A stretch of DNA of 64,000 nt from Verrucomicrobiota bacterium. Lineage in GTDB: Bacteria; Verrucomicrobiota; Verrucomicrobiia; Limisphaerales; AAA164-E04. Position 1 is the stretch's first letter, and the number at the start of each line of letters is the position of its first letter. Made by a program: the position numbers and the translations under genes. Positions 1-8,494 of this stretch are shown piece by piece. The notes beneath the pieces are model-generated. The model was not told the DNA's origin and ran no database searches. It was given only the letters and a program-made list of their open reading frames with translations. The stretch is taken from positions 896,001 to 960,000 of the forward strand of contig CP170459.1 of NCBI GenBank assembly GCA_047947115.1, written 5' to 3'.

Positions 1-156
1 GCCCCAAAAAAAAGCTTCAACCGTTTTCGTTTAGTCATAAGCAGGGAGGTCAAAATTTATTATCGCCAGGGTGTGTCACATCAATCGATCGACCGGCCAG
101 GGATTTTTGATTGGCGTATATTGGACACCGTTGTGAGGTGATAATAATTCATTGAA

Positions 157-2493
157 TTATTGAAAATCTTCATAATTGACGCTTTGTTCTGAATATCCTT
201 GCTGAGCTTGGTTTCCTAATTCCGTTAGAAAACGAGCGAAGCGGTCGATTTCATCCCGTGAAGCATCACGTATTCGCCCCTCTTGCCGCATAACTTTCAC
301 TTCACTGGGAGAAGGAATGGTCACTCTCCCCTTTTCATCAACAGCGAGCGGTACCGCCTCATTAACACAATTGATCATGGTGACTTGAAGGCCTTCAAAA
401 TTTCCTACGGGATTACCTCGACCATCCTCCAATTGCCCCTTCCTGACTCGCCTGGGAGGGGACCAATTGGGATCATCATTAATGGCCGGGTCAGTCGCGT
501 CGTATTTGATTCGAATTTTGCGATCTTCCTCAAACTCTTTCAAAGCGCATTCCTGATACCATCCGATGTAGGGCGAGAGAAGCTTGTCCTCCCCATTCAT
601 CAATGCTTCAAATTCAGGAGAATCACTGTGTAAACTGCCAACGTACGACATAACCTCAGTTGGCAATTCATCCAGCCATTTGATCTCTTTTAGCAGACGT
701 ATGATCAAGCCTTCCATTTCGATCTTGCCGGTCTCAGTGGAAAACTCGGGTTTAAGCCACGCATCTTCGCATAGCATCCTTCGCAACCTCCGAAGCTGAG
801 TCTCAGCTTCCTCTCCACAAGTAACGAATCCAAACATGCTACTCGAAACACGCTTTCCGTCGCGAATAACGTACTCGTCGGGTTCATGTTCAAACGCCGC
901 GTGGTAATATCGGCGAAAAGCGTGAAAGCATTTCCCCACCATCACGGGATTGTGTCCTCGATCATGCTCCTTGAGAATGTTGCAGAAAGTTTCGAATGAT
1001 GAGGTGAAGCGGTTTTCGTCCTCAAAGAATTTCTTAAGGTAAGCGTGATTTGGCCCGATACCCCATTCAGTCTGGCTTCTTCTTTTCCACTGACGACGCA
1101 TTTCCACTTTCTTCTCCGGTGTCAAATGTGAACCACTAACACCATGCAGGTAAAGATAAGGCTGAGATGGATCGAAAGTCAGATTTAGATCATGGGTAGG
1201 TTTCCAAGGGAAATTAGTCTTCCAATGAGCAAGCCTTTCGGCTTCGGCTCTTCGGGCCTTTGGGTCCATGGCAATCATCCTTTGGATGACAATCGATGGC
1301 TCATCCGGACCTGCCCTATGAATGCCTCCGTTTTTTCGCAGGCGTTTGATCTCTTCCGGTGTGGGAATCGTTATGAATCCATCCGCATCTACCTCCACAG
1401 GGATCAGCTCATTTTCACCATTTATTATGCTGACCTTCAGACTGTCACATTGTTCCACGGGTTCTCCCCAATGATCCACCAATCGGCCGAGTTCGACACG
1501 CGCAGTTGGATTTGATTCAGGATCTCTCTGAATAAAGGTCCAAACGGATGCATCATGAATGCGAAACTGTCCATCCAGCTCCGCCTGCAACATTGCACTT
1601 TCTTGATACCAACCGACGTAAGGCGTCAGTAATTGTTCCTCACCATTGACCAAAGCCTGATATTGAGGAGACTCTTTGTTTATTCCCACCAAGTAATTCA
1701 TGATGTTCTTCGGAAGATCATCCATTTCCGGAATTTCCGTCACCAAACGACTGATGAGACTTTCTACCTCAGCCTTACCCGCTGCGGTAGCAAATCGCGG
1801 ACGAAGCCAATCCCAATGACTCAGGTGCCATCTTAGTGAGCCAAGTGTCCCCTCAACCCGATCCGCCCACGTCATATAACCGAACCGCCCCTTCGGAGCC
1901 CGCGATTCATCTGAAGGAAAATATTCGTCCGGTTCGTGTTTAATGACAGCTTCAAAATAGAATCGGAAGGCCTGGAAGGACTCTCCCACCATGGCAGGAT
2001 TATGCCCCCGACCATGTTCCTTGAGTATCTGGTAGAACTTTTGAAACTGGGGCGTGAACCGAATATCATCCTTGAAAAATCCACGAAGAAACCAATGGCT
2101 GCGCCCAATGGAACTCTCAGTCTGGCCTCTCCTTTCCCAAAGACGATGAATCCTTCTATTATCTTCTTGAGTCACCTTCGATATATCATAGGTAAGTAAA
2201 TAATTGTAAGGCTGGGAGGCATCGAAAATCAGCGTGGGGTCATGAGTCGGTTTCCAGGGGAAATTTTCTTTCCAGTTGGCAAGCCTTTTCGCTTCAAGCT
2301 GCCTAGCTTCCTCGCTCAATGGATTCGATGAGATAGAAGTTTTGGGTACTTGTCCCAAATGGAGGGTTTCATTGGGAAATGCTTTATGGTAATTTGAATG
2401 AAATGTCCCCACCCACAACCACACAACCGAGACTGTGATTAACAGGACTGCCATGATCGCGATCAAGTACTGCGGTTTTGTTAGCTGTTTCAT
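157..2493 (-). CDS. Hypothetical membrane-anchored protein: family-A-type leader fused to two tandem copies of the family-B domain (B1, B2)
   Basis: 778-aa ORF with an N-terminal TM (VVWLWV). The motif series WKxNFPWKPTHD...FFxDxxRF...RGHNP...PY[VI]GWYQE occurs twice. Confidence 0.85.
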   Translation of the reverse strand: MKQLTKPQYLIAIMAVLLITVSVVWLWVGTFHSNYHKAFPNETLHLGQVPKTSISSNPLSEEARQLEAKRLANWKENFPWKPTHDPTLIFDASQPYNYLLTYDISKVTQEDNRRIHRLWERRGQTESSIGRSHWFLRGFFKDDIRFTPQFQKFYQILKEHGRGHNPAMVGESFQAFRFYFEAVIKHEPDEYFPSDESRAPKGRFGYMTWADRVEGTLGSLRWHLSHWDWLRPRFATAAGKAEVESLISRLVTEIPEMDDLPKNIMNYLVGINKESPQYQALVNGEEQLLTPYVGWYQESAMLQAELDGQFRIHDASVWTFIQRDPESNPTARVELGRLVDHWGEPVEQCDSLKVSIINGENELIPVEVDADGFITIPTPEEIKRLRKNGGIHRAGPDEPSIVIQRMIAMDPKARRAEAERLAHWKTNFPWKPTHDLNLTFDPSQPYLYLHGVSGSHLTPEKKVEMRRQWKRRSQTEWGIGPNHAYLKKFFEDENRFTSSFETFCNILKEHDRGHNPVMVGKCFHAFRRYYHAAFEHEPDEYVIRDGKRVSSSMFGFVTCGEEAETQLRRLRRMLCEDAWLKPEFSTETGKIEMEGLIIRLLKEIKWLDELPTEVMSYVGSLHSDSPEFEALMNGEDKLLSPYIGWYQECALKEFEEDRKIRIKYDATDPAINDDPNWSPPRRVRKGQLEDGRGNPVGNFEGLQVTMINCVNEAVPLAVDEKGRVTIPSPSEVKVMRQEGRIRDASRDEIDRFARFLTELGNQAQQGYSEQSVNYEDFQ

Positions 2494-2517
2494 TGAAATG
2501 CTCTAGGATATTCCTGC

Positions 2518-3765
2518 CTATTTAGGCGGTTGACTCATTTCCATGATTTTCTGGATGATGGGTGAAGCTTCATCCAAAGTGGCAGGCCTGACATCACCGT
2601 TCTGGCGCATAAGCTCGACCTCCTGGGGCGTGGGTAATGAAATACTCCCATCGTCCTCGACAACGACCGACACCCGCTCACCACGTTCATTAATGAGGGC
2701 TATCTCTCCGCTTTCTGACCATTTGACGGGATCTCCGTCTTTGTCGACAAGTTGACCGTTTATGATATCGACTGGTGGAAACAACTCCGGCATTGCTGCC
2801 TTGAGGAATGGATCCCCCTGTTCATAGCTTGTTTGAAATTGCCTTCTTTGTTCGCCTTCCATCATGGCATGTTCTTCTGTCCATCCAACATAAGGCACCA
2901 AGAGTTCCTCTTCTCCGGAAATTACACCTGCTGCTTCAGGATTAGTAGAATTCATACCACTTACTATCGCGTACTCCATGACGTCAACGGGCAGTTTATC
3001 CAAACCTTCTACTTCACCAAGCAGACGTTCAATCAATGCAAAAGCATCAGCTCTTCCCTCATCGGAAAGGAATCCTGGACGATGCCATCTTGACGTAATG
3101 AGTTTAACATGAAGTGAACCCAGAAGCTTATCTGCATATTGGCCCCATGTTTTGACTTTGAGACGTCGTATTGGAATGTTATCGCTTTCATTGATTTCAT
3201 CGTTTTCACCGTGTTCGTATGCCGCGTGGTAATAGCTTCGTAGTGAGTGAAAAACGGCTGCTGCTGCTACGGGATCATGCCCGCGATCATTTTCTTCAAG
3301 TATTCGGTAAAACTTCTCAAATTGAGGAGAAAATCGTGATTCATCATCAAAAAAGTTTTTCAATACATAATGATTGGCTCCGGTAAACATATCTGTCGCA
3401 CTCATAGGTCCCGGCCTTTTGCTTTCTGCCAAGTAACGACCTGGATCAGATTTAAGATATGGATCATGAGTTGGTTTCCACGGAAAATTGACTTTCCAAT
3501 TCCACAACCTTTCACTCTCTGTATCATGGTTTTGGCTTGTAGAAGCGCCTGGGTTCAATGCAATGCCCGGAAAAGAAGGATTGAATTTCCTATGCTGGTA
3601 ACGGTTTGTTTGTACTGAATCATCTTGATTCAGATTTCCCCTGTTTGTATTAGATGTGATTGACTGCCTTTGTACGAAATTTTGAAATGAGAGCAAAAGG
3701 ACAAGTATTAGCCCTCCCAAACCGCACATGAAAACAATCATTTTCAGCATTTTGTTGTTTTCCAT
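2518..3765 (-). CDS. Hypothetical membrane-anchored protein, family B (B3)
   Basis: 415 aa with an N-terminal TM; WKVNFPWKPTHD, RGHDP and PYVGW motifs; GGAAGG upstream of the ATG. Confidence 0.85.
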   Translation of the reverse strand: MENNKMLKMIVFMCGLGGLILVLLLSFQNFVQRQSITSNTNRGNLNQDDSVQTNRYQHRKFNPSFPGIALNPGASTSQNHDTESERLWNWKVNFPWKPTHDPYLKSDPGRYLAESKRPGPMSATDMFTGANHYVLKNFFDDESRFSPQFEKFYRILEENDRGHDPVAAAAVFHSLRSYYHAAYEHGENDEINESDNIPIRRLKVKTWGQYADKLLGSLHVKLITSRWHRPGFLSDEGRADAFALIERLLGEVEGLDKLPVDVMEYAIVSGMNSTNPEAAGVISGEEELLVPYVGWTEEHAMMEGEQRRQFQTSYEQGDPFLKAAMPELFPPVDIINGQLVDKDGDPVKWSESGEIALINERGERVSVVVEDDGSISLPTPQEVELMRQNGDVRPATLDEASPIIQKIMEMSQPPK

Positions 3766-3785
3766 AAATCACCCTTCCATAGATT

Positions 3786-4289
3786 TCAAAGGTTTTTGTC
3801 ATCCAATACATATGTATACTTCTTGTTAACCCAATTGGTTGTTGTGATCAGAAGTGGATTAATGACATTGTTTTGATTATCAAGGTTGGAAACTGGCGTT
3901 TCCTCTGCTTTAACCGAAGATTTGACCAAGTTTGTATGCCACCAATATTGTTTTCCGCCTGAGACTCCGACATCTGATATTAAACACGATTCAGGGCAAA
4001 CAGGTTCAGATTTATAGTCATATTTGTAAGCGGGAAAACCTATAGCTTTCTTATGACTTTCCCATCCTTCCTTCACCCAAGTTCCGTTGTCGGGATGATT
4101 GAGGTCATTGATATCATCGGCCTGGTTGGACCAGCATGCAACTTGCCCCCAGGTAATAAAAGTTCCTCCAACTTCAAGATGACGAAATACCTTTTGTCCA
4201 GCAGCCACCCATAACCAAACAACCGCAGCTGCGACAAAACTCACCGCTAAGTTCGCGGTCAAATACAGTGGTTCGGGTAATCGTTTCAT
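3786..4289 (-). CDS. Hypothetical protein, family A (A2), possibly internally deleted
   Basis: 167 aa. The N-terminus is collinear with the 778-aa ORF leader (VVWLWV at aa 23-28 in both). FRHLEVGGTFITWGQV resembles YRIISGAGTMITYGQL of A1. Confidence 0.65.
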   Translation of the reverse strand: MKRLPEPLYLTANLAVSFVAAAVVWLWVAAGQKVFRHLEVGGTFITWGQVACWSNQADDINDLNHPDNGTWVKEGWESHKKAIGFPAYKYDYKSEPVCPESCLISDVGVSGGKQYWWHTNLVKSSVKAEETPVSNLDNQNNVINPLLITTTNWVNKKYTYVLDDKNL

Positions 4290-4313
4290 TGATAACCTTT
4301 AAAAGGTATCTGA

Positions 4314-5582
4314 CTACTGGGCCGGTTGTTCCATTTCCATGATACTTTGAATAATAGGAGCAGCCTCTTCCATCGTGGCAGGCCGAATATCACCTCTCTG
4401 ACGCATGAGCTCAACCTCCTCGGGCGTGGGCAACGAAACACTCCCGTCGTCTTCAACGATGACAGGTATTCGCTCTCCACGTTCGTTAATAAGAGCCATC
4501 TGCCTGCTTTCTGACCATTTGACAGGATTATCGTCCTTGTCCACTAACTGACCATTCTTTATATCGACGGGTGGAAATAACTCCGGGGCGGCTTCTTTAA
4601 GAGATGGGTCACCTTGTTTAAAATCCATTTCGAATTGCCGGTTTTGAATTCCTTCATAAACCTGGCTCTGTTCGAACCAACCAACATATGGCACTAACAT
4701 TTCCTCTTCACCATTCCGTATGGATTGATAGTCTGGAGACTGATCGCTCATTCCGGTGCCGTATGCCATCACATCAAGAGGGAGATTCTCCAGCCCTTGG
4801 ATTTCCGTGACCAACCGTTTGATCAACGCATTGGCTTCGGCCTTTCCTGCGTCTGTTCCAAACTTAGGATTCAACCATTCCCAATGTCTTAACCAACCGC
4901 GCAGGCTTTCATACAGCTCATTTGACTTGTCTCCCCATGTAACGTAGCCGAAGAGTCCTTTTCGAATCCGTTTTCCATTTCTTTGAATGTATTCACTTGG
5001 TTCGTGCTCATATGCCGCGTGGTAGTATTGGCGCAAAGCCCAGAAACAGCTCCCTGTCATTACAGGATTGTGCCCGCGTTCATGGTCTTTGAGTATCCTG
5101 CAAAACTTTTCAAACTGGGGGGTGAATCTATTCTTGTCTTGAAAAAATTTCTTGAGAAAGGAGTGGTTCACTCCAGCGGCCATTTCTGAATTGCTTTGAT
5201 GTTTCCAGAAAGCGCTCAGGTCGTCACGTTGCTGATCTGTAAAATCTGTTGCATCCACTCCATTTAAAAACTGGTAGGGTCGCAACGGATCATAGATCAC
5301 TTTAGCATCATGCGTCGGCTGCCACGGAAAATTTTCTTTCCATGATTGCAATCTCTGCTCTTCCAAAAGTTTTTCCTTTTCGCTGAGCAAAGAAGGTTCC
5401 ATTAACTTTTTATAGCTGCTTTTACTTTGGGGCTGGATTTGATTGTCAGACAATTCAATTGTAGATCCTGCTTCCCTTCCGGAGGCAAACTCAAAACCAA
5501 CTTTATTCAAGTAGAAAACACCAATCAAACAAATGACCAATGTCGTTGAAACAACCACATATTGATTAACTTTTCGTTTCAT
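4314..5582 (-). CDS. Hypothetical membrane-anchored protein, family B (B4)
   Basis: 422 aa with an N-terminal TM; WKENFPWQPTHD, RGHNP and PYVGW motifs; last 99 aa are 76/99 identical to B3 (hand count). Confidence 0.85.
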   Translation of the reverse strand: MKRKVNQYVVVSTTLVICLIGVFYLNKVGFEFASGREAGSTIELSDNQIQPQSKSSYKKLMEPSLLSEKEKLLEEQRLQSWKENFPWQPTHDAKVIYDPLRPYQFLNGVDATDFTDQQRDDLSAFWKHQSNSEMAAGVNHSFLKKFFQDKNRFTPQFEKFCRILKDHERGHNPVMTGSCFWALRQYYHAAYEHEPSEYIQRNGKRIRKGLFGYVTWGDKSNELYESLRGWLRHWEWLNPKFGTDAGKAEANALIKRLVTEIQGLENLPLDVMAYGTGMSDQSPDYQSIRNGEEEMLVPYVGWFEQSQVYEGIQNRQFEMDFKQGDPSLKEAAPELFPPVDIKNGQLVDKDDNPVKWSESRQMALINERGERIPVIVEDDGSVSLPTPEEVELMRQRGDIRPATMEEAAPIIQSIMEMEQPAQ

Positions 5583-5596
5583 ACCGGAACAAGAGG

Positions 5597-6643
5597 TCAG
5601 TCATTTGAAAGTTCCGTAGCATACGGAACGTAATTTAGGTTTTGTTGGATCTGTCCTCCTTTTTCTTCGATATCCCCAAATCTGTTTCCAAACCGATCAA
5701 CTTCTTGCACTTGTATCAGTGCTGTTGAATACGTCACATTTCGGTTCCAAACGATATCCATCCCCCCGTTAACGCGCTCCCATGCAATTCGATGATGCGA
5801 TGGGCACAGTTTTTTCGGAACAGTCTTATCCTCGTACCCAGGAAACCAAATTTCTACCGGCTTTTGAGTAAGCATATCACCACTTGCCCAACGACTGCCA
5901 TACTGGTCGGTTATCCATTCTAATTTTTGGAGTTTGAAATGAACTTTTGCAGTGTATCCCATTCCGAGTGCCTTTGCTTGGTTTACCAATTCACCATCCA
6001 ACGCAACTCCAAACCATTCAGGATTCCAAACGTCAGATTCAATGTCGACATCAGGGTATTCAAACTTTGTTGATTCACCATAAGTGAACCAATACCCACC
6101 CTGTTCCCATTCATCTTCCAAAGGCCAAAAAAAAGTTTTCTTTTGAGCTGCTCCAACTAAACCCGTCACCCATTCGAACCTCGACTTATCCCAGTATTCC
6201 GGCATGTACGCTCGTCCCTTGAGGTCTGGATTTACTTTATGTTCCCCTTCTTCTTCATCCCATTCGATGAATATCCAATCAATGTATGTCACCCCATAAT
6301 TGGCTCGATCTCTTACTGAAAAATTCGCAGTTTCCACCGATTCCCCATATGCCACACCTTCATATATGCTCGAATTCCTCATCCTTTCATAGGAAATCAA
6401 ATTTGGACGTGCTCGCAATTTTGAATCCGTGCTATCTGGTTTAAAAATTTCGCGGTATAGTTGTCCGTACGTAATCATAGTACCAGCACCACTAATAATT
6501 CTGTATGCCCACCCAACAGCACTACCCTCACCCACCAACCATGGTCCTGCTACAATCGGAGCTGCAGAATAGATGCTAACAGTGGCCAGCAGTGAGACCA
6601 CCACCATTGTAATAACCTTTTTTGATTGGATGATGTGTTTCAT
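5597..6643 (-). CDS. Hypothetical secreted protein, family A (A1)
   Basis: Start revised to ATG 6643 (AAAGGAACAAAATG, RBS-like). Sec-like signal MKHIIQSKKVITMVVVSLLATVSIYSA, then a Gly-rich hydrophobic segment and a Trp-rich body. Confidence 0.8.
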   Translation of the reverse strand: MKHIIQSKKVITMVVVSLLATVSIYSAAPIVAGPWLVGEGSAVGWAYRIISGAGTMITYGQLYREIFKPDSTDSKLRARPNLISYERMRNSSIYEGVAYGESVETANFSVRDRANYGVTYIDWIFIEWDEEEGEHKVNPDLKGRAYMPEYWDKSRFEWVTGLVGAAQKKTFFWPLEDEWEQGGYWFTYGESTKFEYPDVDIESDVWNPEWFGVALDGELVNQAKALGMGYTAKVHFKLQKLEWITDQYGSRWASGDMLTQKPVEIWFPGYEDKTVPKKLCPSHHRIAWERVNGGMDIVWNRNVTYSTALIQVQEVDRFGNRFGDIEEKGGQIQQNLNYVPYATELSND

Positions 6644-7046
6644 TTTGTTCCTTTGTTTTTCGTTTTTAAATTTGATCAGATCACAGCTCCGCTGGCGTAG
6701 TTCTGCACAGCAGAGTACGTTGATTGAAATTGATTCATTGCTCCGTTTTTTCCGTATGTTCCAGTTGCTGGAACCTGGTGGCTTGATCACCTTGTGTCGG
6801 GCTATTCAGGCAGGACCCGAGATACGGTAAAGCAATAACCAAGCAGTAATGCTACTGTGGAATGGTGTCAATGGGAAAAGTGACTTTTTGCTACAAATTT
6901 ACATAACCGCTAACACACTTGCTACAGGCAAGTTCCACGATATATTAAAATCTTTTGTACTTTCTAATCACAATGTCGGTTTTTCAGACTTATGTCGCCT
7001 TTTTGAACCGATTGTTAGATAATAGGGAAACGGTTTCACACTTTGC

Positions 7047-7138
7047 CTCACACTAAGTCACGAAGCCACAAAGAATCAGGTTTTGATAAAAATATTGAGT
7101 TCCCTTTAAATACTTCGTGACTTTGTGCCTTGTGCGAG
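7047..7138. repeat. Palindromic mini-element with ~27-bp imperfect inverted arms of 8-bp periodic CACNAAG units (REP/MITE-like)
   Basis: Left arm ctcacactaagtcacgaagccacaaag (7047-7073). Reverse complement of the right arm (7113-7138) is ctcgcacaaggcacaaagtcacgaag. AT-rich 39-nt spacer. Confidence 0.65.
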
Positions 7139-7139
7139 A

Positions 7140-8381
7140 TCACTTATCGGTTGGGATGGAACGGATGATTTCTTCCAGGGGGGTTTCGCCGCGGATGACG
7201 CGCTCGATGCCGGCTTGCCAGAGGGTTTTCATGCCTCGTTCGATGGCTATGTCCTGGAGTTTGCGGGTGGGGAGTTTGTCCATGATGGCTTCGCGCATGG
7301 TTTCGTCGACTTCGAGCATTTCAGTGACAGAGGCTTGTCCACTGAATCCGGTTCCCGCGCAATGTTCGCATCCTCCTCCGTTACGTAAACTGGCTTCTTC
7401 CAGGAGCGTGTCGGGTATCAGTTTTTGATATGAAACTTCGGGTTGGTAGGGTTGGGCACAGTAGGGACAGGTGGTTCGGATGAGGCGGAGTCCAAGAACG
7501 CCAATCACGCTGGATGCCAGAAGAAAGGGTTCGATCTTCATGTTGATCATGCGCGCAAAGACCCCGGCAGTGCTGCCGCTGTGAATGGTGCTGATGACCA
7601 GGTGCCCGGTGAGTCCGGCCTGCACCGCGATGTTGGCCGTTTCCGCATCGCGGATCTCACCGACCATGATGACCTGTGGATCCTGTCGCATCAGGGATCG
7701 CAGAGCGACCGGATAGGTGAATTCCTTGGCGTGGTGGATCTGGGCCTGACTTATCATGGGCAGGTTGTATTCCACCGGATCTTCCACCGTGCTGATGCTG
7801 ATGGCCGGTCCGTGTTTTTCAACCAGGTGCGTCAATGCGGCGTAAATGGCGGTGGTCTTACCAGATCCGGTCGGGCCGGTGAGGAGGATCATGCCGCTGG
7901 GTTTGGAGAGCAGTTGTTTCATGCTATCCAAAGTGGATGCTTCGAATCCGAGGTCGTCCAGATTGAAGCTGCGTCGGTTGGGATCAAAGATGCGGATGAC
8001 GATTTTCTCCCCACGCAAAACGCCCCCTTGATGATTCCCCCGAACTACAGGAAAGAAGGACATGCGAAGTTCGACGCCCCCCATCTCCTGCCCTGTCTGT
8101 GCATGCCCTTCCTGAGGGCGGTCCATTTCGTAACTGACCAGATTGGCCATGACTTTGAGCCGGCCTCCGACCTTCTCCATGAGTTCGACCGGCAGATGCA
8201 ACAACTCCTGCAACACCCCTTTCAACCTTATCCGCACGACCAGACTGGCATCCCAGGGTTCGATGTGGATGTCACTGGCACCGGATTCGATGGCATCGCT
8301 GATCATCAGGTCCACCAAGCGCGTGATTTCGAGCGACTCCACGGAGTCCGCTGACTGAAGATATTCGGAGGCCTTGTTCAT
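7140..8381 (-). CDS. GspE/PulE/PilB-family secretion ATPase (short form)
   Basis: ASDIHIEP, Walker A GPTGSGKT, TVEDPVEY, RQDPQVIMVGEIRD, His box TGHLVISTIH, Zn motif CPYC...CEHC. Start revised to MNKASEY. Confidence 0.9.
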   Translation of the reverse strand: MNKASEYLQSADSVESLEITRLVDLMISDAIESGASDIHIEPWDASLVVRIRLKGVLQELLHLPVELMEKVGGRLKVMANLVSYEMDRPQEGHAQTGQEMGGVELRMSFFPVVRGNHQGGVLRGEKIVIRIFDPNRRSFNLDDLGFEASTLDSMKQLLSKPSGMILLTGPTGSGKTTAIYAALTHLVEKHGPAISISTVEDPVEYNLPMISQAQIHHAKEFTYPVALRSLMRQDPQVIMVGEIRDAETANIAVQAGLTGHLVISTIHSGSTAGVFARMINMKIEPFLLASSVIGVLGLRLIRTTCPYCAQPYQPEVSYQKLIPDTLLEEASLRNGGGCEHCAGTGFSGQASVTEMLEVDETMREAIMDKLPTRKLQDIAIERGMKTLWQAGIERVIRGETPLEEIIRSIPTDK

Positions 8382-8494
8382 GTTGTTTATCAATCGTTGT
8401 TTTGCTATAAATGCGAGCACAAAATGTGCCGGTTATTGCCATGCTTTGTCGTAATTACCTATTTCGTAATCCCACTGGATCAAATCTTTGTCAC

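Follow-up and report, generated by a model that had tools for sequence, protein, structure and literature searches.

We analysed a 64,000-nucleotide (nt) stretch of the genome of a Verrucomicrobiota bacterium of the order Limisphaerales (G000:C1:896001-960000, hereafter the window), in which five minus-strand open reading frames (ORFs) at positions 157-6643 form an array of two protein families, termed here A and B. As a preliminary description made from this DNA had stated, the five genes are co-oriented, with 14, 24, 20 and 24 nt between consecutive genes from upstream to downstream, and hold four B domains, in each of which all four B motifs were found; the pairwise identity of these domains is 37-51% (E<1e-70), and all five proteins carry N-terminal hydrophobic segments. 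The GC content is 40-49% over the array versus about 52% in the remaining window, and left of the window end the array carries on with a fifth, shorter B gene (B5). From upstream to downstream the features are as follows.

6557..7200, minus strand: constant 5' block, comprising the upstream region and A1 signal-peptide codons 1-29, delimited by blastn and by the junctions of relatives.
5597..6643, minus strand: A1, intact A-family gene of 348 amino acids (aa), with a predicted Sec signal peptide (judged by eye), a hydrophobic segment and a predicted long-stranded beta body.
6446..6526, minus strand: hydrophobic stretch rich in Gly and Ala, at about residues 40-66 in the mature part of A1, a candidate membrane-inserting element.
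4314..5582, minus strand: B4, cognate partner of A1, 422 aa; transmembrane segment at about residues 8-26, variable linker, conserved core at about 74-300 and subfamily-specific C-terminal extension.
4205..4504, no strand assigned: repeat copy (B4 3' end, spacer and B-type leader), 72% identical to 2409-2708.
3786..4289, minus strand: A2, broken chimeric A of 167 aa; codons 1-26 lie at 4212-4289 and are followed by A sequence with a deletion.
2518..3765, minus strand: B3, intact partner of the broken A2, 415 aa.
2409..2708, no strand assigned: repeat copy (B3 3' end, spacer and B1B2 leader).
157..2493, minus strand: B1B2, 778 aa, with a single transmembrane leader, two B domains and no A of its own.
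1..53, minus strand: 5' end of B5, about 305-310 aa, starting at window position 53 or 38; the gene (G000:C1:895121-896053) runs out of the window.

Both families had been called unrecognised, and database searches bore this out. Pfam and NCBIfam returned nothing credible for the five array proteins, and neither did PHROGs and PADLOC for 10 proteins (one weak PADLOC match of 37 residues, E 0.001); 68 A sequences share no Pfam family, 117 B sequences gave nothing credible in Pfam, and no Pfam domain was found on any of the 120 hits listed from the B searches. Neither profile found a credible match among PDB sequences, and the A and B profiles are unrelated to each other. No description of either family was found in the literature searched, outside which lie subscription papers and supplements. 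We conclude that A and B are two undescribed protein families.

The position of the two genes relative to each other is much the same across genomes: A followed by B is the usual order, the genes are adjacent, and their copy number varies. In a set of 163 non-redundant B genes, the preceding gene is an A for 91 and another B for 18; 1 B is fused to A, the flank is too short for 9, and 44 come after something else, several of these having A-like fragments that the A profile missed. A whole-genome search of G630 with both profiles placed a B no more than 1.2 kb downstream of 31 of 35 A matches, the other four being fragments, and by hand count all 19 long unbroken A frames were followed by B frames of 358-501 aa. 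The identities of A and B are correlated across 50 cognate pairs (Spearman 0.57; maximum 0.15 in 999 permutations), in which A is the more variable partner (median identity 14% versus 30% for B). There is no recurrent third gene: the largest cluster among 385 neighbouring ORFs consists of further A-like fragments, and no delivery or signalling gene recurs beside the cassettes in that set. A different unnamed family, membrane-anchored and helical-looking, stands directly before some A-less B genes (L068:20-1279, L073 and L174).

Comparison with relatives located a sharp junction within A1. Matches of 81-93% identity (blastn) run from the upstream region into A1 in L043, L207, L062, L059 and L044, of which L043 and L207 are one site of one genome fetched twice, and all end at 6557-6558, which is codon 29 of A1 and the end of the predicted signal peptide; furthermore, contigs of RNA-library runs X15 and X17 have loose ends at 6558, and X15 carries both alleles. 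The first 29 residues of A1 are 69-93% identical to those of four other alleles, the mature parts 28-39%, and the three comparable cognate B genes of those alleles are 45-50% identical to B4. Mature A is exchanged together with its own B behind a constant promoter and signal peptide. In the window, the incoming A1-B4 cassette probably displaced a resident A2-B3 cassette.

L059 and L044 are about 96% identical to the window across B3-B1B2, and in both the gene preceding B3 is a full A (365 aa in L059). A2 has a 564-nt in-frame deletion at a 10-nt direct repeat, whose retained copy lies at 4103-4112, and its codons 1-26 differ from the full A of L059 and L044 and match a B1B2-type leader; the 300-nt repeat shared by 2409-2708 and 4205-4504 includes the 3' end of the preceding B. 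Both A2 junctions are bridged by single contigs in runs X16 and X17, and the structure is therefore no assembly artefact. A2 is a chimera with an internal deletion, and its counterparts in other strains are intact. Its relatedness to A1, which had been proposed at the outset, is weak in direct comparison (E 7e-4) and real through intermediates, A2 matching a second A of G000 at E 1e-6 and A1 matching P0068, which aligns with both ends of A2, at E 1e-21. The preliminary description had also seen an A3 leader on B1B2 and, from this, an A that shrinks along the array from full through half to leader only; this has to be revised. The A N-terminal profile gives 29 bits on A2 residues 27-60 and no hit on residues 30-60 of the B1B2 protein (ETLHLGQV), whose residues 1-29 score equally low on the A and B profiles (7.9 and 8.7 bits), so that the leader is best read as a B-type anchor and no remnant of an A. 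It resembles the start of A2 because A2 codons 1-26 stem from a B1B2-type leader. Since the B1B2 leader is without an A-specific motif and A2 is a deleted chimera, the A series runs intact, broken and absent.

B persists under these circumstances. Crude ratios of nonsynonymous to synonymous substitution (dN/dS) were 0.26-0.27 for B1B2 in two comparisons, indicating purifying selection, and 0.38-0.42 for B3 against L059 and L060; a ratio of 3.4 obtained with L044 (192 nt of B3) was set aside, as it involves under one synonymous change. Across genomes, 107 A loci could be judged after those too close to a flank end had been excluded. Both genes are intact at 77 and both broken at 8; A is broken and B intact at 19 (18 without the double count of the window's own pair), A is intact and B broken at 1, and an intact A has no adjacent B at 2 (binomial P=8e-5 for 1 versus 18 and 1.5e-3 for 3 versus 18, with kin loci not independent). 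At the single broken-B locus, L044, the Ns of the contig fall inside that B gene, and in one of the two cases without B, L003, an intact B lies past an inserted transposase. A is lost before B, and B is kept when A is gone. With adjacency, varying copy number, joint divergence and the persistence of B without A, the undescribed paired system put forward as a candidate in the preliminary description is supported.

The distribution of the families is narrow. B is present in 18 of the 22 genomes of the window's family (1-70 matches each), including all 13 that are at least 90% complete, and A in 16 of the 22 (up to 35 matches); many of these genomes have just 1-4 B matches. Beyond this family, B occurs within the order (301 genomes) in all 3 genomes of one other family and within the phylum (401 genomes) in one other genome, G070; a broader B profile found none beyond the window's family among 401 genomes of the class. 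The A profile matched 165 clusters at 50% identity among 1.84 billion proteins. Relatives are named Limisphaerales or 'Verrucomicrobia subdivision 3', one short contig being labelled Opitutales, and of the 24 listed rows with the window's stretch, 20 are runs from estuary, marsh or seawater (15 studies). G000 itself holds four A-B loci and a fifth site of divergent B-like genes, two of which match the B profile (E 1e-11). Its second locus is an A-B-B arrangement whose second B is frameshifted near codon 300 (G000:C1:1773888-1777400, L002); the third comprises A-B, a broken A-B and an A split from its intact B by a transposase-like gene (G000:C1:1812201-1821799, L003); the fourth is a single A-B about 4 kb from a PilB/GspE-like ATPase gene identified by eye (G000:C1:505126-507305, L004). 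At 5.51 Mb of G000 (L260:2619-5675), a signal-peptide gene with an A-like layout and no A-profile match precedes three short, highly diverged B-like genes, an arrangement similar to one in L034. The 2-Mb genome G070, which belongs to another class, has a 76-kb contig with four A-B cassettes (G070:C2, L039-L041), one of them in two identical copies, reflecting either transfer or misbinning.

B is the better conserved family in sequence, with core residues W81, F85, P86, H140, F146, F157 and G291 conserved at 95% or above. Of 107 full-length homologues, 102 have a transmembrane segment at the N-terminus; few residues precede this segment, and B is without a signalling domain. The Atlas model of B is poor (predicted template-modelling score (pTM) 0.25), and the ESM Atlas gave one unnamed cluster at 0.76 for B4 and no usable hit for A1. 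For A, AlphaFold2 with 132 sequences modelled residues 28-348 of A1 at a predicted local distance difference test score (pLDDT) of 89 and a pTM of 0.74, with strands of up to 24 residues crossing several subdomains and the first 40 residues uncertain; an earlier model from 9 sequences was poor (pLDDT 47), its fold search matched N-terminal helices only, and it was rejected. A second structural look at the A1 model gave a best Z of 3.6 and viral structures a best TM-score of 0.21; weak rows at Z 2.0-3.3, for class III viral fusogens and for intermedilysin, were taken as noise. A is thereby predicted to have an elongated beta fold without a solved match among the structures searched. The stretch that follows the signal peptide has a high content of Ala, Gly, Val, Leu and Ile, and it ranks as the mature protein's most hydrophobic 18-mer in 76 of 104 A sequences; a lipobox cysteine is absent by eye, and Cys accounts for 0.1% of residues in the N-terminal segment. 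Homology among A alleles extends over the entire mature length. An extra N-terminal domain of about 100 aa stands before the hydrophobic segment in some A genes (L036, L155 and L176), and the sole natural A-B fusion found (L033:16-2409, G596) is 797 aa long, with one hydrophobic leader, an A-like part and a B domain.

The top PDB ranks of Foldseek for A1 include 5zu4 and Dln1 (rank 1 E 3e-4), both of which align with TM-scores of 0.10-0.11 and a root-mean-square deviation over 35 Å and are not listed by VIA-align; we take both to be of the aerolysin family. A shares with the aerolysin-fold beta-pore-forming proteins described in PMC3110756 the long strands that cross several subdomains; that fold is defined there by an insertion loop of alternating polar and non-polar residues, its best-kept pattern, and also has a five-strand core that spans two subdomains. 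An aerolysin fold for A gains little support: the 132-sequence alignment shows no alternating insertion loop, and alternation peaks (0.21-0.28) only on core strands that are 18-29% charged. No ETX/MTX2 genes were found in 251 genomes of the phylum, though the search controls were also silent.

Upstream of the array, a GspE/PulE-like ATPase gene recognised by eye (window positions 7140-8420) ends about 500 nt from A1 and is the same neighbour in L043/L207; next to it lie two large FG-GAP/CRTAC1-like repeat proteins, likewise named by eye (8411-13820), of a kind common in this phylum. Promoter and terminator scans gave results at chance level, and RNA-library contigs covered genes and intergenic DNA alike, at low depth.

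The array has parallels in systems of bacterial antagonism. With polymorphic toxin systems of the Rhs, CdiA and MafB type, as described in PMC3482391, A-B shares the toxin-immunity gene order, a constant 5' trafficking part behind which the rest and the partner gene are replaced by recombination, and displaced cassettes and tandem partner genes downstream (here A2-B3, B1B2 and B5). Unlike in those systems, the swap point in A is the end of the signal peptide, so that the whole mature protein changes; the A alleles are of one homologous family and fold, without unrelated C-terminal toxin domains; and A-B has no repeat stalk, no delivery system and no sequence match. According to PMC8546572, the myxobacterial SitAI systems, which are kin-discrimination toxins, comprise 25-80 dispersed two-gene loci per genome; the up to 70 B and 35 A matches here likewise amount to dozens of dispersed loci, and three SitA families are, like A, non-modular allele series. 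The SitA proteins described there are lipoproteins that TraAB delivers, and they combine an escort domain with nuclease domains that are cytoplasmic; by contrast, A is without a lipobox cysteine and B is membrane-anchored. As A has neither a modular C-terminal toxin domain nor a lipoprotein signal, the pair resembles these systems without membership in them.

The preliminary description had left open an effector/immunity locus or a secreted protein with a membrane-anchored chaperone or receptor. Allele swapping at the signal-peptide boundary and the decay asymmetry specifically support the former, as do the tandem and doubled B genes without A, and the latter stays as a rival. We favour, at about even chances, a lineage-restricted two-gene module in which A is a kin-directed toxin and B its immunity protein: B is kept, doubled and constrained without A, and an intact A is almost never found without B. 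A would be exported through Sec and aimed at close relatives, and B would be anchored in the inner membrane facing the periplasm, both exports being predicted. Cleavage of the signal peptide would free the Gly/Ala-rich hydrophobic N-terminal segment of A, which may then damage the inner membrane of the target cell, as its hydrophobicity suggests, and B would bind A in the periplasm in an allele-specific manner. An incoming A1-B4 would have ousted A2-B3, after which A2 decayed, and B3, B1B2 and B5 would have been kept because they protect against the A alleles of other strains. The fusion protein (P0069), in which by eye a polar stretch replaces the hydrophobic segment of A, counts in favour (n=1). 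More tentatively, and at less than even chances, A may have a new fold and attack membranes once cleavage of the signal peptide has armed it, and the cassettes may make up a barcode for kin discrimination. This would comprise up to dozens of alleles in a genome and be the first such system in Verrucomicrobia, diversified by swaps of the whole mature protein at the signal-peptide boundary.

A number of observations weigh against a toxin and its immunity protein. AlphaFold modelling of A1, which the preliminary description had proposed, and structural searches with the model yielded no solved match: there was no Z of 5 or above among 48,161 PDB representatives (best 4.2 over 44 residues), which does not prove a new fold, and no known toxin fold matches A in the structural searches. 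A is without a modular toxin domain at its C-terminus, and no residue of catalytic appearance is invariant, the most conserved positions being L219 (90%) and S203 (85%). The amphipathicity of its hydrophobic segment is at background level (0.34 versus 0.30), and AlphaFold models this segment with low confidence and in part as strand. Divergent A genes escape the A profile, and B without A is therefore overcounted; most loci were fetched via B, which favours intact B; some of the 18 broken-A calls reflect partial profile cover, about 12 showing a split frame or the documented deletion; and in L242 an intact A stands 2.3 kb or more from any B. The correlation of A and B identities would also result from joint duplication by itself.

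The same features fit other functions of the pair to varying extents. The main rival, less likely in our estimate, is that A is a variable surface or secreted protein (an adhesin, a fibre subunit or an effector acting on eukaryotes) and B its private membrane-anchored foldase, which would fold A in the periplasm before type II secretion. PMC4713064 presents Lif for lipases and CpaB for CpaA as membrane-anchored type II secretion chaperones, and B resembles Lif/LipB and CpaB as given there in its single N-terminal transmembrane helix (102 of 107 homologues), its predicted periplasmic domain and a gene directly behind that of a Sec-exported partner; the helix and the gene position are the criteria of that class, and this layout is a further point against immunity. 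Furthermore, the higher conservation of B relative to A is what recognition of a fold would lead one to expect, and misfolded A could be harmful, which would likewise disfavour an intact A beside a broken B. The genome has about eight secretin genes (10 matches) and the GspE-like gene seen by eye adjoins the locus, yet the secretins are not linked to cassettes. Unlike those chaperones, whose clients known from that source are enzymes, B occurs orphaned, doubled and in tandem and has no sequence match to them, with no Pfam hit to Lipase_chap or SRPBCC in the 117 B sequences. A private chaperone is useless once its client is lost, yet A-less B genes, intact, doubled or in tandem, are common and B1B2 is under purifying selection; action of B in trans on other A paralogues would be expected to leave many A genes without a B of their own, whereas such genes are rare.

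A non-lethal self-recognition pair, with A a diffusible or surface ligand and B its membrane-anchored receptor, would account for joint divergence, allele swapping and the retention of extra B genes as a receptor repertoire; we consider it improbable, as B has few residues ahead of its transmembrane segment and is without a signalling domain, no signalling gene recurs beside the cassettes, and the rarity of intact A without B is left unexplained. More doubtful still is a single ordinary envelope function of the pair, in which case the high copy numbers would have arisen incidentally, as some genomes duplicated the genes and let them decay. Several sites in G630, G707 and G709 hold identical and broken copies, and many genomes have 1-4 B matches, which would agree with this. 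Against it, the majority of copies are intact and show deep divergence (77 of 107 pairs; median A identity 14%), and passive decay does not account for alleles being exchanged at a fixed junction.

On either of the two leading readings, toxin and immunity protein or client and chaperone, functional tests can draw on a confident structural model and on at least 50 cognate pairs that have diverged. If B is a chaperone, A and B would represent a large new client-foldase family and a new surface-protein fold. If A is a toxin and B its immunity protein, the toxin fold and the immunity family would both be new, and the pair would show kin competition in an abundant, uncultured aquatic lineage.

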